A stretch of DNA of 32,000 nucleotides from Rosenbergiella sp. YN46 (GTDB lineage Bacteria > Pseudomonadota > Gammaproteobacteria > Enterobacterales > Enterobacteriaceae). The stretch is from the NCBI GenBank assembly GCA_036620675.1, contig JAZHEE010000002.1. One strand, written 5' to 3'. Of this stretch, positions 2,176 through 31,500 are shown one piece after another (within the stretch, counting starts at the first letter, position 1; the number at the start of each line of letters is the position of its first letter). The translations under genes were made by a program, and so were the position numbers. A model generated the notes under the pieces. That model was given only the letters and a program-made list of their open reading frames with translations. It was not told the origin of the DNA and ran no database searches.

Positions 2176-2408
2176 CGCTGAATCAGATAGCGAATCGTTG
2201 GACCATCCTGCTGGATGTCCAGCACGGTATAGCCGTGATTTCGGGCATCCTGCGGGATATTATTGACTGACTGCGGGCAGTCGCTTACCACTTCCAGCAC
2301 TTCACCTTTCTTGAGCTGGGGCATTGCCTCAAGGGTGGCGACGGCGGGATAAGGGCAGGGTTCGCCTACCATATCCAGACGGTAGTCGGGAATGATTGAC
2401 TGACTCAC
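2172..2408 (-). CDS. yedF: TusA-like sulfurtransferase YedF
   Basis: 78 aa with the conserved CPYP motif (GEPCPYP). It closely resembles E. coli YedF and overlaps the yedE stop. Confidence 0.9.
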   Translation of the reverse strand: MSQSIIPDYRLDMVGEPCPYPAVATLEAMPQLKKGEVLEVVSDCPQSVNNIPQDARNHGYTVLDIQQDGPTIRYLIQR

Positions 2409-11194: not shown

Positions 11195-11252
11195 GGGCTA
11201 TGTAGCAACATAGAGACAATTTCCCCCTGACGACAGATAGTTATCCGGCATT

Positions 11253-11801
11253 ATGCAATTTAATATACCAACCCTGCTTACGCTGTTTCGTGTTGTCCTG
11301 ATTCCGTTCTTTGTGCTGGCATTCTATCTGCCATTCCACTGGGCGCCATTTCTGTGCGCGTTTATCTTCTGCCTGGCAGCGGTGACGGACTGGTTTGATG
11401 GCTTTCTGGCCAGGCGCTGGAATCAGAGCACTCGTTTCGGTGCCTTCCTCGACCCGGTCGCCGATAAGGTGATGGTTGCGATAGCCCTGGTGCTGGTGGT
11501 GGAGCACTACCACAGTTGGTGGATGACGCTGCCGGCCGCAACCATGATTGCCCGTGAGATTATCATCTCCGCGCTGCGTGAGTGGATGGCGGAAATCGGC
11601 AAGCGTAGCAGCGTGGCGGTTTCATGGATAGGCAAAGTGAAAACCACGGCACAGATGTTGGCGCTAATCGGTATGCTGTGGCGGCCGAATATCTGGATTG
11701 AGTACGCCGGTATTACGCTGTTTTTCGTTGCCGCATTGCTGACATTCTGGTCAATGTTCCAGTATTTGAACGCCGCGCGCGGCGATTTGCTTGAAGGATG
11801 A
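11253..11801 (+). CDS. pgsA: CDP-diacylglycerol--glycerol-3-phosphate 3-phosphatidyltransferase
   Basis: 182 aa. [14 protein letters not shown]...[27 protein letters not shown] matches E. coli PgsA. Confidence 0.97.
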
Positions 11802-11957: not shown

Positions 11958-12033
<76 letters not shown>

Positions 12034-12075
12034 GTTTTCAGCATCGGCCCTTACGGCGGGTGCCAAAAAGAATTT

Positions 12076-12149
12076 GGCGCGTTAACAAAGCGGTTATGTA
12101 GCGGATTGCAAATCCGTCTAGTCCGGTTCGACTCCGGAACGCGCCTCCA
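12076..12149 (+). tRNA. cysT: tRNA-Cys (anticodon GCA)
   Basis: 74 nt, GGCGCGTTAACAAAGCGG...GATTGCAAATC...GGTTCGACTCCGGAACGCGCCTCCA. Confidence 0.95.
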
Positions 12150-12161
12150 CTTTTTCCCCGA

Positions 12162-12247
12162 GCCCGGATGGTGGAATCGGTAGACACAAGGGATTTAAAA
12201 TCCCTCGGCCTTTGGCTGTGCGGGTTCAAGTCCCGCTCCGGGTACCA
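12162..12247 (+). tRNA. leuZ: tRNA-Leu (anticodon UAA), long variable arm
   Basis: 86 nt, GCCCGGATGGTGGAATCGGTAGACAC...GATTTAAAATC...GGTTCAAGTCCCGCTCCGGGTACCA. Close to E. coli leuZ. Confidence 0.95.
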
Positions 12248-12379: not shown

Positions 12380-13387
12380 CTATTTTGCCTCTTCGCGGTT
12401 ATCAAAGGGATTAAGCGCTATAGCTGCATCCAGGTGGTTAGGGGCAAAGTGAGCGTACCGCATGGTCATCATGATGGTGCTATGCCCGAGTATCTGTTGC
12501 AGCACCAGAATATTGCCGCCACGCATCATAAAGTGACTGGCAAACGTATGACGCAGTACGTGGGTACGCTGTCCCTTTGGTAGTTCAATTCCAGCCCTCT
12601 TGAGTGCGGCCTTGAACGCTTCATAAGCAGGGGAGAACAGCGCCCCACGCTTTTTGGGTAACAGCTTTTGCAACTGATCGGAAATGGGTACGGTACGGTT
12701 CTTTTTGCTTTTGGTCTGGGTAAAGGTTATCCGCCCGGGCAGTACCTGGGATTGTTTCAGATCCTGAGCCTCACTCCATCGCGCGCCGGTCGCCAGGCAA
12801 ATCCTCACGATAGTACCCAGGCCTTTGTTGGCCGACTGATCACAGGCTGCAAGCAGTCGGTCAATTTCCTCTTCATAGAGAAAAGCCAGTTCCTGATCGC
12901 CTTCCTTGAACTGCCTGATCCCCGAAAGCGGGTTATCGCCTTCCCACTCTCCCAGCCGCTTCATTTCCGAAAAGACAGCGTGTAAATAAGACTGCTCGCG
13001 ATTTACGGTGGCTTCGCTAAGCTTCTTCTTTCCCTTCTGATTCCATTCACCGCTTAAGCGCCTTTCCCTGTAAACGGCAAAGGTATTTTTATCAAAATGA
13101 GTAGCAAGCGGATCCCCCAGGCGCTCGCAGATGGCAAGCAACTTCGTTTTTCTTTCTTTACCAGAAGACAGCGTTTTGCCGTGCATTTCATACCAGCGAT
13201 CAACAAATGCGGAGAGCGTTACCGCGTTATCGTTAACCGCCTGGCTGGATGCATTATTCATGGTACGGCGCTCGAAGGAGAGCGCCTCGCTTTTAGTAGC
13301 AAACTGCCTGCGTATACGCTTCCCATCGCGGCCATAGGGGAAGCACTGGCAAAGCCATTTACCTGATGGAAGTTTACGGACGGTCAT
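12380..13387 (-). CDS. int: Tyrosine integrase, P2/186 family
   Basis: 335 aa. MTVRKLPSGKWLCQCFPYGRDGKRIRRQFATKSEALSFE... and the C-terminal HVLRHTFASHFMM.GGNILVLQ..LGH....MTMRYAHFAP are colinear with coliphage 186 Int as I recall it. Confidence 0.93.
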   Translation of the reverse strand: MTVRKLPSGKWLCQCFPYGRDGKRIRRQFATKSEALSFERRTMNNASSQAVNDNAVTLSAFVDRWYEMHGKTLSSGKERKTKLLAICERLGDPLATHFDKNTFAVYRERRLSGEWNQKGKKKLSEATVNREQSYLHAVFSEMKRLGEWEGDNPLSGIRQFKEGDQELAFLYEEEIDRLLAACDQSANKGLGTIVRICLATGARWSEAQDLKQSQVLPGRITFTQTKSKKNRTVPISDQLQKLLPKKRGALFSPAYEAFKAALKRAGIELPKGQRTHVLRHTFASHFMMRGGNILVLQQILGHSTIMMTMRYAHFAPNHLDAAIALNPFDNREEAK

Positions 13388-13391
13388 AATT

Positions 13392-13733
13392 CTATTTGTC
13401 GCATAAAGCTAAAGCTGCGTTGGTAACATCGCTTAGGCTCTTTTTTAAACCTTTCGTTTTTTCGTCACTAAGCCAAAACTTATTATCGTTATCAAGTGGT
13501 AGAGCACCGAAAGAACGGCCATTAATACGCGCTGCGCCAGTAAGTGCGTATAGCTTGTTATCATCGAAATTCATCACGTAAGCGTTACCATCAAGACACT
13601 GTAACTGAACTTCATCAGCATTAAAGGGCCATACCCCTTTAAAACTTTCTTTTTCGATAGATTGAAATGGCATAGCGGATACTGTGGTAGAGATAAAGAG
13701 AGTTGATAAGGCAGCCAGTAATTTATGCTTCAT
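13392..13733 (-). CDS. Secreted YebY-like (DUF2511-like) protein, prophage cargo
   Basis: 113 aa with a signal peptide (MKHKLLAALSTLFISTTVSA). The pattern W.FN..EV.L.C...NA.YV.N ... LC at the C-terminus resembles E. coli YebY. GC is lower than the flanks. Confidence 0.65.
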   Translation of the reverse strand: MKHKLLAALSTLFISTTVSAMPFQSIEKESFKGVWPFNADEVQLQCLDGNAYVMNFDDNKLYALTGAARINGRSFGALPLDNDNKFWLSDEKTKGLKKSLSDVTNAALALCDK

Positions 13734-13761: not shown

Positions 13762-14391
13762 TTAAAAAACAAGGGCACCTACAACAAAACCTACAGCGAA
13801 AATAAATCCGAACTCTTTGGGGTGCGCCCGCAGTAGTTCAACAATGTTGAGTCGTTCTGATGTGGGATTGCGAGGAGGTTGGTGTGTTTCCTGCGACGGT
13901 TGATCCAACCAGGATAGTGCAAGCTGAAGCTGGTTTCTGGTCAGATCGTTCAGTCTGCCTGTCCCAAAATTGATATGACAGTATCGGATCAGTTTTTGCC
14001 GGATGTCGTTGTCTTCGCTATTGCGGAGAAGAAGGCTCACCAGTGCCTTGCTGGCGTCTTTTTCCTTGCACCTGTCCAGTATGGCCTGAAGAAAGCTTAG
14101 GGCTGTCTGGTACTGGTTGACGGTCATATCCTCAATACTGGAAACGCCAACTTCTGCATGTACTTTTTGCCAGATGACAAACGCTTCATCGTTCCCGGCT
14201 TCTGCTATCGCAGCAACCAGGGCGTTGAGTTCTTTCCGCTGAGCCTTTACCAGCGGGCGTTTCTCTTCCTTCTCTGATGGAATGGCGATATTGACGGTAT
14301 GGCGCCCGTCAAAATGGTCTATCTGAACGCTATTTTCATGGAAGTCCTGACCCGCGATACGATTCTGCTCACCAGTAGAATTTACCGACAT
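13762..14391 (-). CDS. Hypothetical tail-anchored membrane protein co-oriented with the repressor
   Basis: 209-aa ORF starting 9 nt after the repressor stop. It has a single C-terminal hydrophobic helix (FGFIFAVGFVVGALVF) and two internal repeats of about 31 aa. I could not assign a family. Confidence 0.7.
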   Translation of the reverse strand: MSVNSTGEQNRIAGQDFHENSVQIDHFDGRHTVNIAIPSEKEEKRPLVKAQRKELNALVAAIAEAGNDEAFVIWQKVHAEVGVSSIEDMTVNQYQTALSFLQAILDRCKEKDASKALVSLLLRNSEDNDIRQKLIRYCHINFGTGRLNDLTRNQLQLALSWLDQPSQETHQPPRNPTSERLNIVELLRAHPKEFGFIFAVGFVVGALVF

Positions 14392-14399
14392 AAATCACC

Positions 14400-14786
14400 T
14401 TACTTCTTGTTTTCGTTGAAATCCCTGCCTGCTATGCGGTTGCCTGAGCCTGATACGTTGATTGAGTTTGATGCGGAGCTTCCGGCTGTAAGAGCAGCTA
14501 AAGCAGCAGCCTTAACTGCTAAAGGTGCTGACCTGTAAAGTTTAATTAATTCAATCTCATCATTGGTGATATCACCAATATCGGGGGTTCTTCTGCCGGT
14601 GAGAACATACAGTACATCCACCCCAGCATTAGCTAATGCTGTCAGATAGGCCCCGCCCGGTATTTTTTCGTCACGCTCATAAGTAGCTTGCGCCCCACGA
14701 GATCCCCCCGCTAATGCAGCAAAATCAGTTTGATTCAATCCCTTACGTGAACGCTCTTCTTTTAGTCTGCAACCTAAAGTAGTCAT
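14400..14786 (-). CDS. cI-like XRE-family HTH repressor
   Basis: I chose the ATG at 14786 (MTTLGCRLKEERSRKGLNQTDFAALAG... is a typical XRE HTH). The gene is divergent from the early operon, and no obvious SD precedes it, so the mRNA may be leaderless. Confidence 0.8.
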   Translation of the reverse strand: MTTLGCRLKEERSRKGLNQTDFAALAGGSRGAQATYERDEKIPGGAYLTALANAGVDVLYVLTGRRTPDIGDITNDEIELIKLYRSAPLAVKAAALAALTAGSSASNSINVSGSGNRIAGRDFNENKK

Positions 14787-14806
14787 TTTTATATAAAGTT
14801 GGTTTG

Positions 14807-14830
14807 CATTGACGCCTATAGCGGTCAATG
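14807..14830. promoter_or_regulatory. Candidate operator palindrome in the repressor/early-operon divergent region
   Basis: CATTGAC-N10-GTCAATG, a perfect 7-bp inverted repeat centred in the 84-bp intergenic region. Confidence 0.5.
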
Positions 14831-14870
14831 ATGTTTTCCACATACACTTAGCAGATCACAATATACCACT

Positions 14871-17157: not shown

Positions 17158-18234
17158 TCAAGCCGTTATCGGGATGCTGTTGACCTGCCTGTTTTGATTT
17201 CGCAGTAATGTATAAACCTCGCGTGAGATATAGCGCTTCAGGCAGCGTATTGCTTCCATTTTTGTGTGTCCTTCGGCTACTCGCCTGGCGACATATTCCT
17301 TCGTCTTATCATCAGTTCGTAAACGTCCGATAGCGATGATGTGAAGTGCACTATTTGCAGCACGATCCCCACCCCGGTTAAGCCTGTAACGATTTGTTTT
17401 CCCAGATGATACGGGAACAGGGCTGACACCACACAATGCCGCAAAACCTGGTTCTGATCTTAATCGTTGGGGATTGTCTCCGGCAGTTATCAGCAATTGT
17501 GAAGCGCTTTCGTACCCAATAGCATTACGTTTGATCAGTTCAGGTGCCAGCTCATCGACAATTGCCGCAATCATGACATCTAAATCAGCGATTTCGTCAT
17601 GTAACTCAAGATAGCGTCTGGCAAGGGACTTCAATGAAATGCGATAGACGTTGGTAACATTGCGGTATTCACTGACATCAGGCCTCCAGGATCCCAGAGT
17701 CCTGATGAGCTGCATGCGTGTCATAGTTCTGAGCTGTTCGCGTAATTCATCCGGTGCAGAGATAATATTGGAATGGATAATCTGGAGAGCGACCCTGCGG
17801 GCTGATACCGCTGTTTTACGGCAAGTTTTTAACACCCTAAGAGACTCAATCATGCCATTGCGAGTTTTGGGGGTGACTGTTCTGATTCCGGAGAATGCGG
17901 CATGAGCAGCACATTCAGCATCAATCGTGTCACTTTTTCCCCGCTTGCGTCGTTCCATTCGGTCTGGCGCAGTTACTTCAAGGACTTCTAACCCGACATT
18001 CTGGAAATAGCGAAGCAGTCCGGAACCATAGGTGCCGGTGCACTCAACGCCAATTCGTTTTAACGCTCCAAACGACGCCATCCATGTCAGCATTTGGCGA
18101 TACCCTTGCCGTGTGGCGGAGAAATACTGGGTACCCAGGACTTTATTGTTTTGATCAACAACAGCGGCAACGTGCAGATCTTTATGTGTATCGACACCAC
18201 CAACAATGGCGGTTTCGGTAACGTTATTAGCCAT
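17158..18234 (-). CDS. IS110-family DEDD transposase/recombinase
   Basis: 358 aa. The N-terminus GGVDTHKDLHVAAV...IGVECTGTYG (RuvC-like DEDD) and the C-terminal IPGIG-less ...LCGVSPVPVSSGKTNRYRLNRGGDRAANSALH segment are typical of IS110 transposases. AGGAG lies 9 nt upstream. Confidence 0.9.
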   Translation of the reverse strand: MANNVTETAIVGGVDTHKDLHVAAVVDQNNKVLGTQYFSATRQGYRQMLTWMASFGALKRIGVECTGTYGSGLLRYFQNVGLEVLEVTAPDRMERRKRGKSDTIDAECAAHAAFSGIRTVTPKTRNGMIESLRVLKTCRKTAVSARRVALQIIHSNIISAPDELREQLRTMTRMQLIRTLGSWRPDVSEYRNVTNVYRISLKSLARRYLELHDEIADLDVMIAAIVDELAPELIKRNAIGYESASQLLITAGDNPQRLRSEPGFAALCGVSPVPVSSGKTNRYRLNRGGDRAANSALHIIAIGRLRTDDKTKEYVARRVAEGHTKMEAIRCLKRYISREVYTLLRNQNRQVNSIPITA

Positions 18235-18515
18235 GACACGACTCCTGTAAGGAAACAGAGTTGAATCTCCAGACAGATAACCCGGACAGGACAGTAACGA
18301 GACAAGCCGTCAGGCCCTTCTTGAGTCACGCGCACCGGTGAGGAGATGCCTCGCATGAAGGCGCTTCCGGCAACCGACGGGTCCAGGGCAGGACACAAAA
18401 GGTCGATCGCTGTGTGAGTCAGGATGCGGGAAGGTCTTCACTGCATCAGTAATCACATCAATCTGGTTAAACGGCAAACGGAGTGATGATAAAAACTGAC
18501 ACCGGCATTATTACT
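18235..18515 (-). ncRNA. Candidate IS110 bridge (seeker) RNA region in the 5' non-coding end
   Basis: This is only positional inference: a GC-rich non-coding stretch between the IS end and the transposase ATG, where IS110-group elements encode their guide RNA. I have not folded it. Confidence 0.3.
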
Positions 18516-19127
18516 ATCGCTATGTACGATGACCTCGCCGTCCGGTTTTCGGCGCCAGACCGCCATCATCAGCGCGTCGAGCGCCAGTTCGCGTGAGAGG
18601 GTGGGTTTCATCGACCAGCCGACCACATTACGGGCGAAGAGATCGATAACCACCGCCAGATACAGCCAGCCCTGCCAGGTGCGGATATAAGTAATATCGG
18701 TGACCCAGACCTGGTTGGCCCGGACAACGGTGAACTGCCGCTGCACGCGATTAGGAGCAACGATTGAAGGCCTGCCAGCGATACGACGTGGCGCTTTATA
18801 GCCGCGCACGGCTTTAATCCGGTTCAGTTGCATGATCCGACCCACCCGGTTTTTACCGCAGGTTTCCCCGATTTCGTTCAGATCGCCATGAACCCGCCGG
18901 TAACCGTATACGCCTCCGCTCAGGGAATATGAGTCGCGGATAAGCATCAGCAGGCGCTGGTTATCTTTATCACGCGCCGAGACCGGGTTATGCAGCCACG
19001 CATAGAACCCGGCCCGGGGGACATTCAGTACCCGACACATTGTCATGACACCCCATACAGTGCGGTGCTCATTGATAAAGCGGTACTTCAGTCGGGCTCC
19101 CTTGCAAAGTACCGCGCGGCCTTTTTC
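18516..19127 (-). pseudogene. IS3-family transposase OrfB (DDE), truncated
   Basis: The -1 frame is open from the slippery site (..LKYRFINEHRTVWGVMTMCRVLNV..WVTDITYIRT..GWLYLAVVIDLF.R..VGWS). The tail after HSD is unrelated sequence ending at 18453. Confidence 0.8.
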
Positions 19128-19372
19128 AGGATATCCCGTTCTTCTTCGGTGCGTTTTAGCTGCGCCCGGAGTTTCAGGATCTCGCTTTTAGCTTCCAGTA
19201 AATCCCGGGCATGCTGCTCGCTGTTATCAGGTTTGATAGCCCGTAGCCACTTGTAGAGGCTGTGTGCAGAGACGCCCAGACGGTCAGATACTTCGGCGAC
19301 GGAATAACCGCGTTCCGTTATCTGACGGACGGCTTCTTCCTTAAATTCAGGTGTAAATCGTGGTGTGCCCAT
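19088..19372 (-). CDS. IS3-family transposase OrfA (HTH)
   Basis: 94 aa. FTPEFKEEAVRQI....SVAEVSDRLGVS..SLYKWL plus a leucine-zipper-like tail ending ILKKAARYFA. Confidence 0.9.
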   Translation of the reverse strand: MGTPRFTPEFKEEAVRQITERGYSVAEVSDRLGVSAHSLYKWLRAIKPDNSEQHARDLLEAKSEILKLRAQLKRTEEERDILKKAARYFAREPD

Positions 19373-19446: not shown

Positions 19447-19755
19447 TCAGTCGCTTTCATATTCCTTCAGAGACGAACTCACCTTTTCTCTTACGAGTTG
19501 CAGGAAACTGAGGGCATCAGTGCCCCATAAGTCAGGATCAAACTCCAGGTCGTAGCGTTTCCTGAACGCTTCTTCCGGATTGTCAGCACTTTCAAGGAAA
19601 AGATCAATATCAGCGATTAATCCATAGCGCATAGCGAAGTGGCTATCGGCGATAAATGCGTCAATTTTTGGTTCAATTTCATCACTGTCATCAATAAGAT
19701 CGTAATCCTGCCCGAAGTAAACAGTGATAAAGCAGTCAAACTCATTGAGGTTCAT
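19447..19755 (-). CDS. CdiI-like immunity protein, paralog 2
   Basis: 102 aa and acidic. The motif F..VYFGQDYDLIDDSDEIEPKIDAF is shared with the upstream paralog. Its start overlaps the stop of paralog 1 by 14 nt. Confidence 0.6.
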   Translation of the reverse strand: MNLNEFDCFITVYFGQDYDLIDDSDEIEPKIDAFIADSHFAMRYGLIADIDLFLESADNPEEAFRKRYDLEFDPDLWGTDALSFLQLVREKVSSSLKEYESD

Positions 19756-20059
19756 TATTCAGATCCTGCCGGACCTTTTCCCTTGCGAATTTCAGGAAGT
19801 CATGGGGGGTTGTGCCCCAAAGTTCTGGCACAAAATACTCGCCGTAAACATCATGGAACGTCCTGTCCAGGGCTTCACCTAAAGCCAGAAATTCATCAAT
19901 ATCATCAAGAAGCGCCAGCTGCATTGGTCGTCCGGAGTGTTTATTATAGGCATCGATCTTTGGCTGAATCTCTTCACTGTCGTCGATAAGGTCATAATCA
20001 TGACCGAAATAATTACAGATAAAATTATCCAGCTCCCGAGCCTTATCTTTAACAAACAT
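19742..20059 (-). CDS. CdiI-like immunity protein, paralog 1 (probable cognate immunity)
   Basis: 105 aa and acidic. F..NYFGHDYDLIDDSEEIQPKIDAY is the pattern I associate with contact-dependent-inhibition immunity families. The gene starts 23 nt after the toxin stop, with GGAG upstream. Confidence 0.6.
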   Translation of the reverse strand: MFVKDKARELDNFICNYFGHDYDLIDDSEEIQPKIDAYNKHSGRPMQLALLDDIDEFLALGEALDRTFHDVYGEYFVPELWGTTPHDFLKFAREKVRQDLNNEPQ

Positions 20060-20082
20060 AACTTACTCCATTGGCATTGAGG

Positions 20083-20901
20083 TTACGATGAAATAGGGCT
20101 TCCCGTTACGTTATATTCGGTAAGTTCCAGCCAGAGCTCAACGCGATAACATTTCCGAACTTCAGAACTACCCCTCTTTATGACAATGCCGGTTGGTTGA
20201 GCGAAGGTAGTGGAAAATTTTTTCCGCCAGGGGGTACCTTTGGGTTGATGACGCACGAACATTTCAATGGCATTTTTATGTTCTCTCAACACCTTTGTTG
20301 TCAGCCTTTCTGCTTCATCCAGATTTCTGAAAGAGCTTGCTGCGGGTAACCCGGGACGTCTTCCGAGCCTTGCCAGTAGCTCTTCTGGCGTTTTACCTAC
20401 GTGGCGTTCCAGCGTATGCCCACCAGGGTGCTTTCCGGTTGCTGACTCATGTATCGCCAGTTTTATCCTTCCGTTGCGAACGGCTGCAATACGGACGGCG
20501 CTGACGGCCAGTGCAAATCCCATAGGGATAGCGAGATCAACTGTCATTCCAACATGAGCAGCGGTCTGGCGATCGGCTCCCAGTCCTTCGGCCAGGGATA
20601 CAGCAGTATTGTAGGTATCGGTATTGATCTGCCTGCCGGTCCACATCTGGCGTACGGAAGCCTGTATGGCATCCAGGCTGTGGGTGCCTACGATGACACA
20701 ACCGGCTTTAGTGAGCATAGTGGGATCGGGGGCGACGCACATGACGCCTGCTCCAAACATTTCTGCCACGCCGCCTGCCAGCCCCAGACCTCCCCACAGA
20801 CGGTTACTGAGGGTTTCCCCCTCGCTGACGGATTTATCGGTCAGAACAGCGGCAAGCTGAACCGGGGAGAGGGCCATTCTGACCCCACCATCGTCTGTCA
20901 T
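20083..20901 (-). CDS. Polymorphic toxin: Gly-rich membrane-helix N-domain plus C-terminal bacterial RNase A-like (CdiA-CT type) domain
   Basis: 272 aa with GGGAG 9 nt upstream. The N-terminal half has Gly-zipper-like hydrophobic helices (LWGGLGLAGGVAEMFGAGVMCVA; DLAIPMGFALAVSAVRIAAV). The C-terminus GKHPGGHTLERHVGKTPEELLARL...FRNLDEAE resembles the RNase A-like CDI toxin family. An immunity-type gene follows. Confidence 0.65.
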   Translation of the reverse strand: MTDDGGVRMALSPVQLAAVLTDKSVSEGETLSNRLWGGLGLAGGVAEMFGAGVMCVAPDPTMLTKAGCVIVGTHSLDAIQASVRQMWTGRQINTDTYNTAVSLAEGLGADRQTAAHVGMTVDLAIPMGFALAVSAVRIAAVRNGRIKLAIHESATGKHPGGHTLERHVGKTPEELLARLGRRPGLPAASSFRNLDEAERLTTKVLREHKNAIEMFVRHQPKGTPWRKKFSTTFAQPTGIVIKRGSSEVRKCYRVELWLELTEYNVTGSPISS

Positions 20902-21053
20902 ATCAAGGACTCCCTGTTGTGCTTAAAAGGCTGGCACCATCATAACAGCCATAAGCATTAATTTTCATAATCGCAAAAAGAGTTTATCGCTGACCGTCCT
21001 TCTTGTCCTGCGCATTCTGTACGCACCTTTTTAATCCCCCTGTGGAGGTGTGT

Positions 21054-21401
21054 ATGAATCAACCCTGTCTGGCCCGGCGTCTGAGCGCTCGTATTCCGGG
21101 CATCACTGGCCTGCTGTTGCTGGCCGCTTTATCCGTATCAACGTCAGTCCGGGCTGCCGAGAAAGACGAACTGGCGTCGGCCCTGCGTCAGTTGGACCAG
21201 GTGCAGGCATCTCTGGAGCGGGCCCGCGTGGCTGCAGCCCAGGCTGATCCGGCAGAGCGTGGCCGCTTTTTCTTTGACTACCGACAGGCAACATCCGACC
21301 TGAACACGATTCGGGGCGGTGTTGAGCGCTATCTGGAACCTTCCCGGGCGCAGCCCCGGTCATCGCATATCGGCGGTCATTACCGCCGGGAGCGTCCCTG
21401 A
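21054..21401 (+). CDS. ICE protein, RAQPRD family (variant RAQPRS)
   Basis: Internal ATG at 21054 preceded by GGAGG. It has a signal peptide, ELASALRQLDQVQASLERA, and the signature SRAQPRS near the C-terminus. Confidence 0.7.
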   Translation: MNQPCLARRLSARIPGITGLLLLAALSVSTSVRAAEKDELASALRQLDQVQASLERARVAAAQADPAERGRFFFDYRQATSDLNTIRGGVERYLEPSRAQPRSSHIGGHYRRERP

Positions 21402-21637
21402 TGAATGCTGCGCAGTCCACGGCCTTTAAAGCCGGTTCAGGAGATATCGAAGTCAGCATTCTGCACCTGGTCTGTATCGGAGCGCTGCTGGCATTTCTGT
21501 TTCTCTGGACCGCCTGGGCGTTTGTGGATGTCTGGAGTGGCTGGAGTAACGAGAGAGTCCGCGATGCCGCACTGGTGCGCTTTGCCATCCGCGCGGTGCT
21601 GCTGTTGGTTATTTGCATCTGGATGTTCGCCAGCTGA
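21401..21637 (+). CDS. ICE small membrane protein (PFL_4701/TIGR03758-like)
   Basis: 78 aa with two TM helices. It is translationally coupled (TGATG) and in the expected position after the RAQPRD gene. Confidence 0.6.
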   Translation: MNAAQSTAFKAGSGDIEVSILHLVCIGALLAFLFLWTAWAFVDVWSGWSNERVRDAALVRFAIRAVLLLVICIWMFAS

Positions 21638-21668
21638 ACGCTGTTTTTAATTTTTTCAGGAGAAATAC

Positions 21669-22055
21669 ATGAATCAATCTCAGTCTGTTATTGCCCGGAT
21701 TCGTTGCGGTGCCGAGCGCGTTTTGGCCCGGGGGATGGCCCTGGCATTACTGGCCTGGCTGACCTGTCAGCCAGCACTGGCCGATCTGCCTACGGTTGAG
21801 CCGCCGCAATCCGGTGGAGGCAGTGGCCTGATGGGGCAGATTAAAGGATATCTGCAGGACGGTATTGTTCTGGTTGGTCTGGTGCTGGCAGCGGTTGCCT
21901 TTGTGAAGGTGGCTGAAGCGGGGTTGTCTACATACGCGGAAGTCCGCGATAAGAAAGCAACGTGGGGCCAGTTTGGCGCCATCGTAGTCGTAGGGGTGGT
22001 GTTGTTGGTCACTGTTATCTGGTTGGTGGGCAAGTCTGCCGACATCATTCTGTGA
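21669..22055 (+). CDS. ICE membrane/pilin-like protein (PFL_4702/TIGR03745-like)
   Basis: 128 aa with a long signal-like N-terminus, the ADLPTVE..P motif and two TM helices. The position is conserved in this ICE family. Confidence 0.6.
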   Translation: MNQSQSVIARIRCGAERVLARGMALALLAWLTCQPALADLPTVEPPQSGGGSGLMGQIKGYLQDGIVLVGLVLAAVAFVKVAEAGLSTYAEVRDKKATWGQFGAIVVVGVVLLVTVIWLVGKSADIIL

Positions 22056-22061
22056 GGCCAT

Positions 22062-22346
22062 ATGCAGACCATTCGCTTTATACCTGACCGTCTCAACAGT
22101 GAGCCTGTAGTGTTTCGCGGGTTTACCACTCCGGAGCTGGGGCTGGCTGCGCTGGCGGGTCTGGGGGCGGGTCTGCTCCTGTCGTTACCGTTCATTCCAC
22201 TTGCCGGCTGGGTCATTGTGCCCACCGGCATGCTGGTGATGCCGCTGCTGCTTATCTGGTCCGGAGGCCGGTGGCTCAGTCGCCTAAAGCGATTATTTTT
22301 TATCTCACTGTTGTTTCCCAGTTTAGTGGGGTTCATGGTGGGGTAG
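22062..22346 (+). pseudogene. ICE conjugative-transfer membrane protein (PFL_4703/TIGR03750-like), truncated after ~75 codons
   Basis: The N-terminus MQTIRFIPDRLNSEPVVFRGFT.PEL and TM helices fit the family. After ...GGRWLSRLKR the frame runs into unrelated (LysE-derived) DNA. Confidence 0.6.
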
Positions 22347-22525
22347 GAAACTACCTGGCCTTAGCATCCGTTCACATAGCGGTAATGAGTATCTGGCTCA
22401 TTGCTGTTAGTCGTACCTTGGTTTTCTCTGCCAAAAATACCGATCCTGTCATTCTTAAAAAATATGTGAATATAGCTGGGGGAGCCCTGCTTATTATTTT
22501 TTCACTACACAGTCTCACTCATTAA
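22271..22525 (+). pseudogene. LysE/RhtB-family amino-acid exporter, C-terminal fragment only
   Basis: SPKAIIFYLTVVSQF... plus the following TM helices match the second half of LysE-type translocators. The N-terminal half is absent and replaced by ICE DNA. Confidence 0.65.
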
Positions 22526-22679
22526 GTTCCGACAGCCACTCAATTTATCTTTATTTATGGCAGAAACAGCCGTTCCTGGCACGGAACAGACCATCTGACT
22601 GAACTGAAGATCCGCTGAGAGTGAGCAGCGGAAGTTGACTTCGCAATATAGCGACCAAGCTCTGAATTCGCTGAGAAGT

Positions 22680-23050
22680 CTGGTGGTTGCCAGAATATGC
22701 AGCCAACATGAGGCCGGTTATTCCTGATTATGACTGGAGCATATTCGGGCTCAGGGTCACATCATAAGCGACCTGGCGAGCATATAGCTCAGCACCTGGG
22801 TACGCCCCCTTTGGCAATTCAACTCCCGCACGCCTGAGTGCGGGAATTGAATGCCTCACAGGCCGGGAGAACAGCGCCCACGCCTTTTTGGGGATAATCG
22901 TTTTTGCCGCTGTTCAGAAATAAGCACGGTACGGTTCTTGCTGTTTTTGGCCTGAGTAAGGGTTAACCGCCCGGGCAGGAGCTTAGAACAGAGTCAGAAA
23001 GCGCTCGCTTTGCACTGACTTCAACTAAGCTGGCTCGATACCATCTGGTA
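22680..23050 (-). pseudogene. Degraded second copy of a P2/186-type integrase (C-terminal third, frameshifted, with stops)
   Basis: By-eye nucleotide and protein alignment to the intact int at 12380-13387. LLPGRLTLTQAKNSKNRTVLISEQ..K.L.PKRRG aligns with VLPGRITFTQTKSKKNRTVPISDQ..KLLPKKRG, then IPALRRAGVELPKG and a frameshifted RTQVL...MM. Confidence 0.75.
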
Positions 23051-23073
23051 TTTTTCCTGCTCTAAGTCTCTAT

Positions 23074-23334
23074 TTATTTACAACAACCGGTCACTATACT
23101 TGTCACACTCCCGGAGCTGATATTGATGATATTGCTTATCCCACATGATTGGTTTAAATCGACGTTGTCCATATTGTTTTTTATTGAATTCTCAATGGAT
23201 TGACCTAAGTTTGACAGGTCGGGCAGGTGCTTATTTATAGCGGCGTTGAGTTGTTTATTGAAATCAGCCATAAAACCATCAAGGAAGCCAGCACCAGAAA
23301 CTTCATTTACCTCGTAAGAATTTAATATACGCAT
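23074..23334 (-). CDS. Candidate class II microcin-like precursor (double-glycine-type leader)
   Basis: 86 aa with AAGGA 8 nt upstream, in an AT-rich locus. The N-terminus MRILNSYEVNEVSGA|G has the length and pattern of MccV/MccL/MccH47 leaders. The core is Asn/Ser-rich with three Cys near the C-terminus. Confidence 0.5.
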   Translation of the reverse strand: MRILNSYEVNEVSGAGFLDGFMADFNKQLNAAINKHLPDLSNLGQSIENSIKNNMDNVDLNQSCGISNIINISSGSVTSIVTGCCK

Positions 23335-23985
23335 TGATAATTCCTTTTATTGAATAAAATGTGATTTTTGTAAGATCAGCTGTTATAGCTATAACATTAT
23401 TATGCTAAATGTATTATTTTAAAATTGCAATAAGAATATTTATCTATTATTCTGCTCTAAGACGTATATACAACATCAGCCTGTCACTGGTCATTCCCGG
23501 TCTTGCCAGGTGATTCCGCTGTATACGCTGCCTGATGCGTGATAATAAGCTAATTTGGCGTGAGTGAAATTTATTTTCTCACTCTTGTGATTAGAGGGGG
23601 GCTTGCCAGTAATAATGTCCGGATGGTTTAATAATGTTGTCAGAAATATTGATATGCTTCTGGTGCATCGTACCGGAATTCACTCATAGATATTCCCTTT
23701 GAATCTTTCCAGAGACAGTGTCATTTCCCATACCGACCAGGTTGATATGCAGTGCCTGTTGATTCCTGCATTATTGCAGTCACACCGCAGGGTCTGGCTT
23801 CGTAAATGCCTGGTTCACCCTGCACCTGAATTCTGGATATTTCTTTAGCTTCCGTACCGCCGCCCGTTGTTTACTACTATGACGACCGGCTCTTCCTGAT
23901 TCGGGCTACTCTCTGGCGCTTTCAGCAGCCGCCCGGGTCTGCATTACCGGAACCCGGGCGTGCGCCATGTGGTAGGGAAGGGCCG

Positions 23986-24360
23986 TCACGCAGCTGGGTT
24001 AGCAGCGGGAATACTGTCCAGACTGTAATACACCGTAAGTCCTGACTCTGTCGCGATACGCACATCATTGTCGGCGCCTTTGGAATCTCCTGCGATACGT
24101 AGTACTGCATTGCATCGAGTAATCAGCCGGTGAGCTACCGGATAAAGAAACGCTTCGCTGATTTCATCGCCGATTTTTTTTGAACCAGCGGCTGCCGCCA
24201 GCGGAAAGGCCAACCACTCGCCAATCACCGGTATATGACCTTTCTGATAAACTGTCAGCGCAGCCTGTTCCATACGGGAAAGATTTTCATGGATCCGTTT
24301 TTCATCGCCGTGGGTACCGCTACGGACCGGGCCAGCAATCAGAATTAACTTACTGTTCAT
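23986..24360 (-). CDS. Small Rossmann-like protein (nucleoside 2-deoxyribosyltransferase-like / DUF4406-like, tentative)
   Basis: I chose the internal ATG at 24360 (MNSKLILIAGPVRSGT...), which overlaps the upstream Nudix gene by 11 nt. The family call is tentative. Confidence 0.5.
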   Translation of the reverse strand: MNSKLILIAGPVRSGTHGDEKRIHENLSRMEQAALTVYQKGHIPVIGEWLAFPLAAAAGSKKIGDEISEAFLYPVAHRLITRCNAVLRIAGDSKGADNDVRIATESGLTVYYSLDSIPAANPAA

Positions 24361-26547: not shown

Positions 26548-26810
26548 TCAAAAGTCGTAGTAGATGGAAAGCCAGGTGGTATCCTGCTCATTGTCGCTGC
26601 TGGATGCCAGGGTACGCTCCAGCCAGAACGAAAAGCCGTGACCAATGATAGTGTACATGCCCAGATAAACGTGATTCGCGTGGTAATTTTCGTCGCCCTT
26701 CAGGCGCAGCGTGTCGGCCGCAATGCAAGGCTGGATGGATTCCACGAATGGTTTATCAACGGGGGAGGGAATTGCCCACAAAGCTTTCCAGAACGTAACC
26801 CTAACCGCCT
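26548..26810 (-). pseudogene. 3' fragment of porin-like gene (duplicate of 31239-31500)
   Basis: ...DKPFVESIQPCIAADTLRLKGDENYHANHVYLGMYTIIGHGFSFWLERTLASSSDNEQDTTWLSIYYDF equals the C-terminus of the downstream porin-like ORF. The sequence upstream in the ORF is unrelated. Confidence 0.75.
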
Positions 26811-27207
26811 TCAGGTGCTCTACCGTTTCTTTGCAATTGTATCTGGAGGGGACACCTGCTCTGGCGGCCAGCCTGGCACCGGAATACTGCGGGGTACAGG
26901 GATGTTTATCATTATCAAGAGCCTTTTCAACGGGTAACTTCGTCAACATGCGAGGAACGGGTTAATATCGGCTTTGGTCTTAAGGTCTTTAACCGGGTTA
27001 GCTGAAAGGACTTTAAGTTTCTTTTGGTCCATACATAAATTTCCCGTCTTTGCTATGGGAATAAAGATCCCCAAAACAGGCCGATACAAAATTTAAGTCA
27101 CAGCCTCCAGCGAGCTGCTTTGTTATCGGAGCTGGTGACCGCCTGGACGGTCACCTCAGAGAAATGGTATTTACATCGCGTGGCGAACAGGCGCCTGGCA
27201 GCAAATA

Positions 27208-30200
27208 TCAAAATAAATATTTCACACCTAAAATGGCCTGTGTATCGCTGTATCCTTTGCCACCAATCTGTTGGGCTACATTCCCCCATAGATTCACATT
27301 ACGGTTGAGTTGACTCTCGACTCCTACTTTTACCTCGCCGATATTTCGGGTTCCTGCCTGTCCCACGTGAACTCCATTAAGCGATGCTCCGAAATCCTTT
27401 GTGTTATGCAGCCAGTTTAGCTCTACAAATGGCTCAAAGGTACGCTCCTTCCCTTCATCAATAACACTGCGTCCTTTAATAAATGCCCTGACGCCAAGGC
27501 GGGACTGAATATTACCGTCGCCAGAGCTATGTACCCGCGTCCCGTTTACTTCCCGATGAGCATCGGCTTTTACTCCCATCCATATCAGTTGAGCTACAGG
27601 CTGAATGTAATAGCTTTCACGCTCATTTCTTTCCCCTGTTTTCCAGGTATAACCTGTTTCCACAGATGCCGTAATACCTTTCGACTTATAGCTTTCAGAG
27701 GGTAGCGACTGGCCACTGATACGGTTATTAAACCAGTTATACAGCACCCAGGTGTCAACATAACCCCCCGTCTTTTGCTCATTGTCCTGGAACCAGGTGC
27801 CATATATCCCGGTACTGTAGCCATTGACGCTGCCGTCAGCCCGGTAACTATTGTGAGTATTACGGGTGTTGCTCTTCTGGTTTGCGTAGCCGCCCATAAT
27901 CCCGAGATGGAAACGATTTTGACCGTTGCTGCTCCACTGTGCGATATCGCCCCCCAGTTGCATAACATAGCGGTTGGCCTGTGTGTTCAACTGACCACTG
28001 CTATCCTTAAACCGGGTGTGTCCGCCGATATGACGTAACCACATACTGGTCACTTGTTCCTCACCGCTCAGGGCATCCACATAGTGAGTTTCTCCAAGAC
28101 GATCGTGTAACCGGTGTACAAACAATGTATTTGCAGCTTGCAGATTGGTTGCATATTCGCTTCCTTCCGGGCGAATGTCAGGCTGCGGAGCTGGTTCCGG
28201 TGAGGGTTCAGGCCCCGGCCCCGGCCCCGGCTCCGGCTCCGGCTCTGGATTAGGCCTGGTGTTGATAAGATACCAGTTGGCATAGTCATTCCCTTTACCG
28301 CGGCTTAAATAATATTCATAGGCGCCACCCACTATGCGTCCGCTTTGCACAAAGGTACCTTCCGAATGGCCTGCTACGCTAATTAATTCAATGCCTTTAT
28401 TGGTATAAGCACCGGTACCACCTGTGTTATTCACCTGTACAAAGGTGGTGCCAGCTGTATTTCCCTTGATAATCAGTCGGTCGGTTTTTGAGGCATCATT
28501 TCCAAGGACAGTGTTGAACTCAATGTGTCCATTATTCCCGATGTAGTTCCCTTCAACCAGAAGAGTATTGCCGACCCGTTGTTGTTGATTACCTGTATTT
28601 CCGGCAATTATTACGCTTCCGGTATTGATTAATTCTTTATCAATAAGGAGTTGGGCAGGGCGCTGTTTTTTATTATATAAACTGCCTACCTTAAGAGTTG
28701 CGCCATTCATTACCTGTGTTTTACCGAGGTAGCCCTCAGCAGAAAGCATGCCACCCGTTTGTACAGATATCTCACCGCCTAAAGCATTGGACGAATCCAG
28801 ACCGCCATGCTGAACGGATACTTTTCCTGCGTAACCTCCACTATCGCCGCTTAAGTATAAAGTAGAGAGACCGCTTTTCTCGATATACCCTGAACCTGCG
28901 AATGAGCCAGCATAATGGCTGTTTGAGTTTTGATTAACGATTAGGTTGGCATCCGTGATATCTACCTCACCGCCCCTGCCTGAAAGGTATGACATCGTCA
29001 AATCATGACCGTTAAGATTCAGTTTACCGGCATTGATAATATATGAGGTATTATTTACTAATGCGCCATCACTGTCTGACCGAAGTTCTCCGGCCTCTAT
29101 TCGCGTTCCGCCTGAGTAACTATTTAACCCAGAAAATACCACCAGACCATCGCCTGATTTGACTATCCCACCATTTCCTTTTAATGAACCGTTAAGATGC
29201 ATTTCTTTATTATTGCCGGATTCCAGCACTGATTCTGAGAGTACATTCATATCTACGCGGGTGGACAGTTTGTCATCGCAGTAGTCACATTCATTTACCC
29301 GGAGAGTTCCTCCATTAAGATTAAATGAATAAGAGCCGGCACCGGAAATTATCGCGTCCTGATCAGGCGATAACTTACTGTTGGCGATAGTCATAAATCC
29401 ATCTTTATTCAGGTTGACTGTCGCAGATGTATCATTGCTGCTTGCCAGGAACAGGCCGGAAACCGGATTTTCAAAACCATCTGCATCAGTATTAGCTTTG
29501 CCTTCAAAAATGACTTCGCCGTAGTTATCAATATTAAGAACCGCCGATCCGGCACCCTTTTGTTTTACTTTCACATCGATAGACTGGAGATCGTCAAGTG
29601 CATCAGCGGCCAGGGACATTTGGCTACCGACGATTAAACGGCTACCGCTTCCTGAAACAGTGATTTCAGCAGAGGGGGAGCTATCAGTCAAGTAAGTGTT
29701 ATCGTCTGCTAAGGTTGTTGACGCGCTTATCCTTCCGGCATATAACTTTCCTCCATCGGTGATATTAATTATTCCCCTGCCAATAAAACCAAGATATAAC
29801 GAACCATTTTCAACAGAATCACCAAGATAAGGAGCATTGTTTTTTAAAATCAATGCGCTACCAGAACCTGAGATATTTAAAATTCCTGTGTTGCTGGCGT
29901 TTCCTGTACCTATGTATGCTTTGTTTTTAGAGAAGTTTTTTTCTTCACCGACGTTCATGACCGCGCCGTCAAGTATATTCAATACACCTGTTACTTCACT
30001 ATCTCTTTGGGTATTCCAGTCAAAATTCCCACTACTACCAACGCGGAGATCGAGTGAAGTCACCTCCCCAATTTGTGGGCCAACAAGATTTAGTATGCCA
30101 TGAGTGTTATAGATGGGGGTTCTTTCGGTTGTGACGGTGCCAACAGCAAAATAGGTAGTGTTATTTATATTTGTTGCGGACTCAGATAGGGTTAATGAAC

Positions 30201-30435
30201 CATTTCCACCATCCAGTCCAACAGTGAAGGAGCTATTATATGTTGATGAGCCCTTTAATAACAGATTGCCAGTATTGCCATCGCCACCACCAATGATGTC
30301 ACCTTTGGTGTTCCTGTCCCAGAGTCCATCACTCCATACTTCAGAAGAGTTAAAGTATGGTGGTGCAGCAGAAACGGAACAGCTTAATAAAGCTAAAGTG
30401 GATACCCTGGAAAGATAATTGGCTTTAAATAACAT
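27208..30435 (-). CDS. AIDA/pertactin-type classical autotransporter (type Va) adhesin-like protein
   Basis: 1075 aa with a signal peptide and a long Gly/Asn/Ser-rich beta-helix passenger with imperfect repeats. A Pro-rich linker (PNPEPEPEPGPGPGPEPSPEPAPQP) precedes a C-terminal 12-strand-type beta-barrel ending ...LGVKYLF. GC is low. Confidence 0.93.
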   Translation of the reverse strand: MLFKANYLSRVSTLALLSCSVSAAPPYFNSSEVWSDGLWDRNTKGDIIGGGDGNTGNLLLKGSSTYNSSFTVGLDGGNGSLTLSESATNINNTTYFAVGTVTTERTPIYNTHGILNLVGPQIGEVTSLDLRVGSSGNFDWNTQRDSEVTGVLNILDGAVMNVGEEKNFSKNKAYIGTGNASNTGILNISGSGSALILKNNAPYLGDSVENGSLYLGFIGRGIINITDGGKLYAGRISASTTLADDNTYLTDSSPSAEITVSGSGSRLIVGSQMSLAADALDDLQSIDVKVKQKGAGSAVLNIDNYGEVIFEGKANTDADGFENPVSGLFLASSNDTSATVNLNKDGFMTIANSKLSPDQDAIISGAGSYSFNLNGGTLRVNECDYCDDKLSTRVDMNVLSESVLESGNNKEMHLNGSLKGNGGIVKSGDGLVVFSGLNSYSGGTRIEAGELRSDSDGALVNNTSYIINAGKLNLNGHDLTMSYLSGRGGEVDITDANLIVNQNSNSHYAGSFAGSGYIEKSGLSTLYLSGDSGGYAGKVSVQHGGLDSSNALGGEISVQTGGMLSAEGYLGKTQVMNGATLKVGSLYNKKQRPAQLLIDKELINTGSVIIAGNTGNQQQRVGNTLLVEGNYIGNNGHIEFNTVLGNDASKTDRLIIKGNTAGTTFVQVNNTGGTGAYTNKGIELISVAGHSEGTFVQSGRIVGGAYEYYLSRGKGNDYANWYLINTRPNPEPEPEPGPGPGPEPSPEPAPQPDIRPEGSEYATNLQAANTLFVHRLHDRLGETHYVDALSGEEQVTSMWLRHIGGHTRFKDSSGQLNTQANRYVMQLGGDIAQWSSNGQNRFHLGIMGGYANQKSNTRNTHNSYRADGSVNGYSTGIYGTWFQDNEQKTGGYVDTWVLYNWFNNRISGQSLPSESYKSKGITASVETGYTWKTGERNERESYYIQPVAQLIWMGVKADAHREVNGTRVHSSGDGNIQSRLGVRAFIKGRSVIDEGKERTFEPFVELNWLHNTKDFGASLNGVHVGQAGTRNIGEVKVGVESQLNRNVNLWGNVAQQIGGKGYSDTQAILGVKYLF
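28211..28247 (-). repeat. Tandem hexanucleotide repeats (GGCCCC x3, GGCTCC x2-3) encoding the (PE)n(PG)n linker
   Basis: Read directly from the sequence: ggccccggccccggccccggctccggctccggctctgg. Confidence 0.85.
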
Positions 30436-30629
30436 TTTTAATATCCTTTTTAAATGTTATATCAATTAAGGATTTGCTCTTTTTTTAAAACATGTAGTTT
30501 GTCAATAAGATATGTTTTGTGTGATCGCTGGCGTCCTGTTGCTTAGGGTCGGTGGAGCCAGAATGGCTGCCTGCTAGTGATAGATTAGTCTGGTCGTTAC
30601 CGCTGCTGACATTACCGGATATCTTCGGA

Positions 30630-31500
30630 AACACCAGAATGGCAGTATAAGGTATGTTTCACCACACCTTATGGTGCTTCACCGTCCAGATGCTGAGCCC
30701 AATTCCATATGAGAAACATCGAATCGATGGCGATATTGGAAATCTGTGGCAGTCGTACCCCATAGCGAATATGGGAACGGCCATGCCAGCGATGCCAGGC
30801 ATGGTTTCTATTGATTAGCGGGGCGGACTTTACAAGATTAGTATGGAGCATCGGTACGCTTCCTTTCATATGAGAGACAACAGCCTTGTTGTTATTCAGG
30901 GATCGCTCTTATTCTTGTTGTGGCATCTCCTGTTGAGCGGTGTTCTGGGAAATATTCTCAATATGAGATTATATTCAGGCTGTTTATTTGTCAACAACTG
31001 TTTTCTTTGATGATGTTGTGCGTTGGGATTCGGTAGTGGTATTAAAGGAAAGTGCTGATTTAACTATGAAGTATTGCTTTATTTTTTGCTAATTCAAAAG
31101 ATAAGCATGATGAATGAGTTGTGGAGTCGTGTGTTCCGCTCAAGGAAAAACGCTCAGATTGATAAATGTCTGGCACGCTGCTGCGATAGCAGGATAAAAG
31201 GTGGGAAGGGCGCAGCCCAAGGCCGCGCCCGTCAGACATCAGAAGTCGTAGTAGATGGAAAGCCAGGTGGTATCCTGCTCATTGTCGCTGCTGGATGCCA
31301 GGGTACGCTCCAGCCAGAACGAAAAGCCGTGACCAATGGTGGTGTACATGCCCAGATAAACGTGATTCGCGTGGTAATTTTCGTCGCCCTTCAGGCGCAG
31401 CGTGTCGGCCGCAACGTAAGGCTGGATGGATTCCAGGAACGGTTTATCAATGGGAAAGGTATAGCCGACAAAGCTTTCCAGACCGTAGCCGTCACCGGCG
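30630..31500. repeat. Direct repeat copy B
   Basis: See copy A. The order of elements is the same and so is the orientation. Confidence 0.8.
30669..30851 (-). pseudogene. Degraded paralog of the small membrane-protein gene (TM segment deleted, frameshifted)
   Basis: MLHTNLVKSAP..LINRNHAWHRWH aligns with MIRINFVKSALFLLLILSLICLLINEVQAWHCWH. The upstream leader and SD region are also homologous. Confidence 0.5.

Follow-up and report, generated by a model that had tools for sequence, protein, structure and literature searches.

A candidate double-glycine-leader peptide gene, microcin-like in its predicted processing, beside a degraded P2/186-type integrase of Rosenbergiella sp. YN46

The class IIa microcins MccL (MclC) and MccV (CvaC) have 15-residue leaders and cores of 88-90 amino acids (aa), and their genes adjoin cvi-type immunity genes and CvaB/MchF exporters. 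In MccPDI and MccS, 18-aa leaders precede basic cores rich in Gly (22%), and the immunity gene, directly downstream, encodes a CPBP protease. Class II microcins begin with a double-glycine signal of 15-18 aa that ends in GG or GA, with Arg and Ile or Leu close to the N-terminus. Class II microcin cores range from 60 to 90 aa, and microcin immunity genes are typically immediately adjacent (PMC10233263). A C39-peptidase ATP-binding cassette exporter (PCAT) is encoded somewhere in the assembly for ~82% of E. coli microcin hits, leaving ~18% with no detectable PCAT (PMC9746304). Here we compare with these systems an open reading frame (ORF) of 86 codons at positions 23074-23334, minus strand, of a 32,000-nucleotide stretch (hereafter the window) of contig JAZHEE010000002.1 from Rosenbergiella sp. 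YN46 (assembly GCA_036620675.1).

Signal-only screens in Enterobacteriaceae have yielded more than 1,000 candidates of this kind, with activity in ~29% of the tested ones. Parker et al. 2025 (PMC12219008) defined class II microcin signals by a regular expression, Motif 1 (M..Rx[IL]x9G[GAS]), and reported 1060 putative class II microcins of Enterobacteriaceae, 31 of them validated. The ORF in the window matches Motif 1 and lies within the ≤150-aa limit of that study. Like the hits reported there, it has a highly divergent core and comes from an under-sampled genus, and such small ORFs are easily missed by gene callers. In 26 of the 31 active hits an immunity protein was adjacent, whereas none adjoins this ORF.

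We interpret the ORF, with a probability of about 0.55, as a genuine double-glycine-leader peptide gene, microcin-like in its processing, that travelled as prophage cargo and was stranded when the prophage decayed. The encoded peptide is a candidate and not an established class II microcin: judged by sequence, it has the leader and the size of the class (an 86-aa precursor and a predicted 71-aa core of 7.5 kDa, within limits of ≤150 aa for the precursor and <~10 kDa for the mature peptide), and it lacks both an adjacent immunity gene and core homology. In its working it would stand nearest to the class IIa microcins, its leader being most like those of MccL and MccV.

Leader and reading frame of the candidate precursor

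The ORF extends from ATG to TAA, as the earlier note on this DNA had proposed, and its product is MRILNSYEVNEVSGA followed by GFLDGFMADFNKQLNAAINKHLPDLSNLGQSIENSIKNNMDNVDLNQSCGISNIINISSGSVTSIVTGCCK, the predicted leader and core. The leader (codons 1-15, 23290-23334, minus strand) is 15 aa long and ends in Gly-Ala, with Gly as the next residue and cleavage predicted after Gly14-Ala15. Counted back from the cleavage site, it has Val at -4, Val at -7, Glu at -8, Leu at -12, Arg at -14 and Met at -15. It therefore agrees with Motif 1 and also with a stricter double-glycine consensus modelled on the classical LSxxELxxIxGG, through its Glu at -8, its hydrophobic residues at -4, -7, -12 and -15, and its terminal Gly-Ala. 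The register is that of MccL and MccV, to which the leader is identical at 8 of 15 and 7 of 15 positions, respectively, and the cleavage context, VSGA/G (the slash marking the cut), is the same as in MccL.

The two patterns differ greatly in stringency. Motif 1 by itself is weak, with 0.83 chance matches expected per 32 kb of six-frame ORFs, and a second, spurious match to it lies at 17.7 kb in the window; for the strict consensus, with Glu at -8 and hydrophobic residues at -7 and -4 required in addition, the expectation falls to 0.0025 per 32 kb. We also scored the leader with a position-specific scoring matrix (PSSM) built from ten leaders, nearly all recovered from plasmid DNA. The set included MccL, MccPDI, MccS-like leaders, two MccN-like, one MccE492-like and one MccI47-like leader, an MccV variant, and MccV from the literature. 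The MccV and MccL leaders that the earlier note had quoted were both verified in this way, the former from the literature and as a plasmid variant and the latter at 100% identity on plasmids.

The candidate leader scored 16.2 bits, which lies near the bottom of the range spanned by true members in leave-one-out scoring (16.6 for the MccE492-like leader; 15.0 and 18.9 for the MccH47 and MccM leaders). Only 1 of 498,744 null starts from second-order Markov simulations of the window reached this value, equivalent to ~0.26 per 5 Mb over all six-frame starts. Real enterobacterial and prophage DNA (1.44 Mb, 38,459 starts) yielded no ORF with such a score other than those of the training set, the best of the rest scoring 14.8 bits. 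Because such a score is so rare in both simulated and real starts, a chance origin of the leader resemblance seems very unlikely, and the earlier assertion that the first 15 residues and the following Gly resemble class II microcin leaders is upheld by the regular expression, the strict consensus and the PSSM alike.

Other properties of the ORF also resemble those of a gene. An in-frame TAA lies five codons 5' of the ATG, with a second stop shortly after the first, so the 86-aa frame is self-contained. The ATG is preceded, at a spacing of 7 nt, by a Shine-Dalgarno sequence (SD), AAGGA (23342-23346, minus strand), that is equalled by ~2% of random starts. The ORF has a GC content of 38%, compared to 18-25% in the 135 nt upstream (a non-coding stretch at 23335-23470, minus strand), and composition returns to ~50% on both flanks; the AT-rich block as a whole has 34% GC. 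The good SD and AT-rich composition claimed beforehand are thus both present. An ORF of at least 86 aa would arise with P = 0.024 in sequence with the composition of the 471-nt AT-rich block. Gene callers annotate the protein in two assemblies: the NCBI contig of the window and the Logan assembly of run ERR1715229, from a second strain.

These figures bear directly on the most serious alternative, namely that the AT-rich block is horizontally acquired non-coding spacer or regulatory DNA, in which the frame, the SD and the leader-like N-terminus coincide by accident. GC content is flat across codon positions (GC1 0.39, GC2 0.33, GC3 0.41), as expected under this explanation; the ORF is a complete ORFan with no family match and no supporting neighbors, as described below; and the Motif 1 match taken alone is commonplace. 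Moreover, the ORF was selected for the very resemblance being tested, which introduces a look-elsewhere effect, and the PSSM is small, with only ~6 effective sequences. Against it stands the joint rarity of the signals: a per-start probability of ~2e-6 for the PSSM score and ~0.02 for the SD give ~0.005 chance occurrences per 5-Mb genome. The length of the frame, the absence of an equal match in the 1.44 Mb of real DNA, the coding-like step in GC between the ORF and its upstream region, and the gene calls in two assemblies point the same way. Together, these considerations make a chance ORF unlikely.

Separately from the candidate, an unannotated segment of the Enterobacter cloacae plasmid pM12X01451 (389-702 of the retrieved stretch) encodes a leader and N-terminal core like those of MccE492 and, beyond a frameshift, an MccV/MccL-like C-terminus (CYWNPNNLSDDCY). 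It could be a chimeric or decayed microcin gene.

The integrase fragment and the proposed cargo slot

Downstream of the ORF, on the same strand, lies a degraded fragment of a P2/186-type integrase. Tblastn with the intact integrase encoded elsewhere in the window (12380-13387) placed the fragment at 22760-22987, minus strand, where residues 213-288 are matched at 42% identity (E = 1e-9) and interrupted by a stop codon and frameshifts. The earlier note had recognized this relic and its orientation correctly and had placed it too broadly, at 22680-23050. The first 212 codons are missing, as are the other genes of the prophage to which the fragment belonged. At its far end it is cut, at 22762, by the 3' end and right terminus of an IS3-family insertion sequence (IS) element (22661-22762, plus strand). 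A search for an attR copy of the tRNA-Leu gene found none.

The region 5' of such integrases proved to be a recognizable site for cargo. We compared 80 prophages whose integrases are related (75-94% identity); among them, the gene abutting the integrase start belongs to at least 20 unrelated families. The genes in this slot, which falls at about 2100-3000 of the compared stretches, are nearly all AT-rich (34-43% GC), and many encode signal peptides. The slot upstream of this type of P2/186 integrase is therefore a genuine hypervariable hot spot for morons or defence genes. Since its occupants are variable and AT-rich, an AT-rich, stand-alone ORF of 86 aa upstream of such an integrase fits the pattern: like the integrase-proximal morons, the candidate is AT-rich and self-contained, shares the strand of the integrase and lies just upstream of it. 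The double-glycine leader sets it apart from the other occupants, as does its junction with an integrase that has lost codons 1-212 along with the rest of the prophage.

The AT-rich cassette is flanked by the two copies of an imperfect ~45-nt direct repeat (P = 0.003-0.009 against dinucleotide shuffles). One copy (23049-23095) comprises the last seven codons of the ORF, its stop and 25 nt downstream; the other (23445-23488) lies at the upstream edge of the cassette and reads 'VTG*CC', which resembles the 3' end of the ORF. Blastn-short found no further copies in the sequences compared. These copies may delimit the cassette or be left over from a lost tandem copy; a duplication junction and chance are further possible origins. 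We considered a degenerate tandem paralog upstream of the ORF and rejected it: only the ~45-nt repeat is significant, and the remainder is dissimilar at both the DNA and the protein level.

We suggest the following history for the locus. A moron cassette of ~400 bp, AT-rich and carrying the ORF, would once have occupied the variable slot upstream of a P2/186-type integrase, and the prophage would later have been destroyed by deletion and by insertion of the IS3 element.

The state of the surroundings lends itself to a second account, which makes the same claim of origin and denies present function: the ORF would be a dead microcin gene, the last piece of a bacteriocin module that lost its immunity and export genes to deletions and IS events, in a genome that retains no PCAT. 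The surrounding 1.7 kb of wreckage, made up of a truncated gene of an integrative and conjugative element (ICE), a LysE fragment, the IS3 end and the integrase fragment, is what such a history would leave. The upstream repeat copy can likewise be read as the 3' end of a lost tandem copy, and the ~500 nt beyond the cassette (23489-23985) matched nothing. Yet neither the ORF nor the SD nor the promoter-like region is damaged, and outside the repeat the upstream region does not resemble the ORF. We regard a dead gene of this kind as quite improbable.

Core, partner genes and relatives

Beyond the small training set and the selection effect noted above, a number of results weigh against a stranded, microcin-like precursor. 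Some concern expression. A sigma-70-like promoter match, TTTAAA-16 nt-AATAAT (23396-23423, minus strand), is one of consensus resemblance and statistically weightless, such sites being fewer here than in shuffled sequence; a search for an intrinsic terminator of the ORF found none. Others concern the slot itself. None of the 80 cargo genes of the related prophages encodes a double-glycine leader. In addition, the stop of the ORF lies only 87 nt from integrase codon 213, on the same strand; with codons 1-212 gone, the present junction is thus the product of a deletion and not the native junction between cargo and integrase. The earlier proposal of a prophage cargo slot is supported by the hypervariable, AT-rich slot in the 80 relatives, though not by the junction as it is now.

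Composition of the core adds to these points. The predicted core (23077-23289, minus strand) has a computed isoelectric point of 4.8 and is poor in Gly, at 8.5% compared to 12-22% in six confirmed microcin cores (15.6-17% in MccL and MccV). Its grand average of hydropathy, -0.07, falls within the range of the six confirmed cores (-0.51 to +0.16), and its combined Asn and Ser content of 28% is near the 26.5% of MccPDI; a core that is not Gly-rich was therefore correctly foreseen, whereas calling it hydrophilic exaggerates how far it departs from known microcins, and its Asn/Ser-richness has a counterpart in MccPDI.

In length it is comparable to the cores of MccL and MccV, and like them it is acidic to near-neutral with Cys near the C-terminus, although it has no sequence similarity to either. 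Its likeness to MccPDI and MccS is of the same general kind: they share a double-glycine leader, an Asn/Ser-rich core and several Cys, again without sequence similarity. The three Cys lie at precursor residues 63, 84 and 85, and the peptide ends in SIVTGCCK. The C-terminal Cys pair is as the earlier note described it, with the first Cys 23 and not ~30 residues from the end. The Gly/Ser-rich tail of ~10 residues to which class IIb microcins attach siderophores is absent from the C-terminus, as the earlier note also stated. A single-sequence AlphaFold model of low confidence (mean predicted local distance difference test score of 65), from which we draw no conclusion, contains a helix at residues 14-55 and a beta-hairpin at 67-82.

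Both genomic marks of the class, an adjoining immunity gene and an exporter with its MFP, are missing from the window. In confirmed reference loci, immunity genes (cvi, or CPBP-family genes for the PDI, S and N types) and exporters adjoin the microcin gene, and those of MccL and MccV have no counterpart around the candidate: neither a PCAT nor a HlyD-type membrane fusion protein (MFP) is encoded in the window. Taking as immunity candidates small inner-membrane proteins of 51-216 aa directly adjoining the gene, we found no ORF of at least 51 aa with transmembrane character within ~500 nt on either side. The only hydrophobic ORFs nearby have 23-34 codons; they either overlap the gene or fall within the AT-rich non-coding stretch. 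Translated flanks gave no Pfam match, and searches of 23335-24010 and 22500-23080 for remnants of exporter or immunity genes found none. In the second strain, too, the 10 kb upstream of the ORF, towards nudK, encode no PCAT or MFP; in the other direction its contig ends ~350 nt past the ORF stop. Within the window, then, the earlier report of an absent exporter, MFP and immunity gene was accurate, and the gene is an orphan, probably a stranded one, because none of these genes accompanies it.

If the gene is expressed, we would expect transcription from its own AT-rich promoter region and translation from the good SD. By analogy with its class, a PCAT would recognize the leader and cut after Ala15, and the 71-aa peptide would leave the cell through an MFP and TolC, possibly with a single disulfide that links Cys63 to Cys84 or Cys85 (precursor numbering). 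To work, the peptide would need a PCAT from another part of the genome, and the gene may well be silent or a relic. We think it unlikely that the peptide is an active antibacterial in this strain. A stronger proposal, that it is a class II microcin delivered by phage, functional and new in its type of sequence (Gly-poor, Asn/Ser-rich and ending in Cys-Cys-Lys), which brings no exporter or immunity gene and uses a PCAT and MFP encoded elsewhere in the host, strikes us as improbable.

The same gaps bear on a further alternative, in which the ORF encodes a real but cytoplasmic moron protein, for example one acting in exclusion or regulation, that is not exported by a PCAT and whose N-terminus mimics a double-glycine leader. 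The slot carries many unrelated AT-rich genes, none with such a leader; no exporter or immunity gene is near; the Gly-poor core is unlike those of confirmed microcins; and a single long helix, common among small phage proteins, makes up most of the low-confidence model. What this explanation does not account for is that all seven positions of the leader consensus are occupied as expected, in exact register from the start codon, and that the cleavage context is that of MccL. Nor does the peptide match any phage or defence family. We judge a cytoplasmic moron decidedly unlikely.

Sequence databases provided no relatives. A word-index search of 5.8e9 proteins and a phmmer search of 1.84e9 representatives each returned only the 86-aa peptide itself. 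Scans of JGI metagenomes, of IMG/VR and of a genome collection with one member per species, confirmed by tblastn, revealed no homolog, tblastn against plasmid and phage collections gave nothing below E = 0.4, and the cassette with its flanks had no blastn match in E. coli genomes, plasmids or phages. There was no significant match to the peptide in Pfam, NCBIfam, PHROGs, PADLOC or the PDB, nor any microcin family in Pfam or NCBIfam at or near threshold, so that core homology of the kind used by cinful is lacking. No UniRef entry appears among the listed sources of the protein, and a literature search for the leader string MRILNSYEVNEVSGA had no match. A weak match covering the leader in Scandinavium loci proved to be the N-terminus of a cation antiporter and was rejected as chance. 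The peptide is a complete ORFan in the collections searched: the comparison suggested earlier, of the core against genomes for homologs that keep the Gly-Ala or Gly-Gly site, was run and returned no homologs. For want of them, conservation and covariation offer no evidence of translation or selection, a further point against the interpretation.

The exact protein is known from two sources, the NCBI contig of the window and the Logan assembly of run ERR1715229. In 4,088 aligned positions there are 51 differences (about 1%) between this second strain and the window. Over 22883-23411, which includes the ORF, there are no differences, compared to six in the following 174 nt. The unchanged segment is compatible with constraint and with recent acquisition alike.

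If a stranded, microcin-like precursor is indeed encoded here, its core would be a new one without relatives in a toxin class that is still being charted, with a possible new receptor or killing mechanism, and double-glycine-leader peptides would be able to move as stand-alone prophage cargo apart from their exporters. If the peptide is functional, the moron slot of temperate phages would be a vehicle for exporter-less bacteriocins. In practice it is one unvalidated candidate of the regular-expression type among thousands, located in a decayed region and without accessory genes to lend it credibility. Its main value is as a cheap candidate for an existing CvaAB secretion screen.

Other features of the window

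The window opens on the chromosomal genes dcyD-tcyLN-uvrY-uvrC-pgsA, followed by tRNA-Gly, tRNA-Cys and tRNA-Leu (11958-12247). The UvrC and TcyN encoded there cluster at 90% identity with proteins of J. calystegiae and Jejubacter sp. L23, which places the organism, one of the Enterobacteriaceae, near Jejubacter. Next to the tRNAs is the P2/186-type prophage remnant that contains the intact integrase (12380-13387), with a DUF2511 (YebY-like) gene in the cargo slot of that integrase (13392-13733). The remaining genes of this remnant encode a repressor-like helix-turn-helix (HTH) protein (14400-14843), Fil and an exonuclease. The C-terminus of the HTH protein and the N-terminus of the product of the next gene (13762-14391) have in common a 19-aa stretch of 63% identity (14332-14465), a short local duplication.

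An IS110-family transposase gene (17158-18234) and an IS3-family orfA/orfB remnant (18453-19372) part the prophage remnant from a truncated ICE remnant. The latter, at 19447-20901 (minus strand) and 21003-22346 (plus strand), comprises toxin/immunity cargo together with RAQPRD, DUF3262, DUF2976 and DUF3487 genes. Its cargo includes an orphan RNase-A-type CdiA-CT toxin of 272 aa, without a CdiA body, followed by two CdiI_2 genes. In Jejubacter sp. L23 the same toxin/immunity cargo occurs in an intact ICE at the same pgsA-tRNA site (9500-11450 of the compared stretch). A C-terminal fragment of LysE lies between the ICE remnant and the IS3 end at 22661-22762.

Past the unmatched ~500 nt that follow the cassette, the chromosome resumes with a conserved pair, a gene for a 124-aa protein and nudK. 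Eighty nudK loci of other Enterobacterales share nudK with the window, 26 of them also the 124-aa gene, and none shares anything to the left of ~24023.

Farther along, the second strain lacks a 4.4-kb segment (26808-31182) that carries an ORF for a 1075-aa autotransporter (27208-30435, minus strand). In the window this segment lies between two copies of a ~313-bp duplicate, which comprises the 3' end of the porin gene with the adjoining downstream sequence; the difference looks like either an insertion or a deletion by recombination between the repeats.

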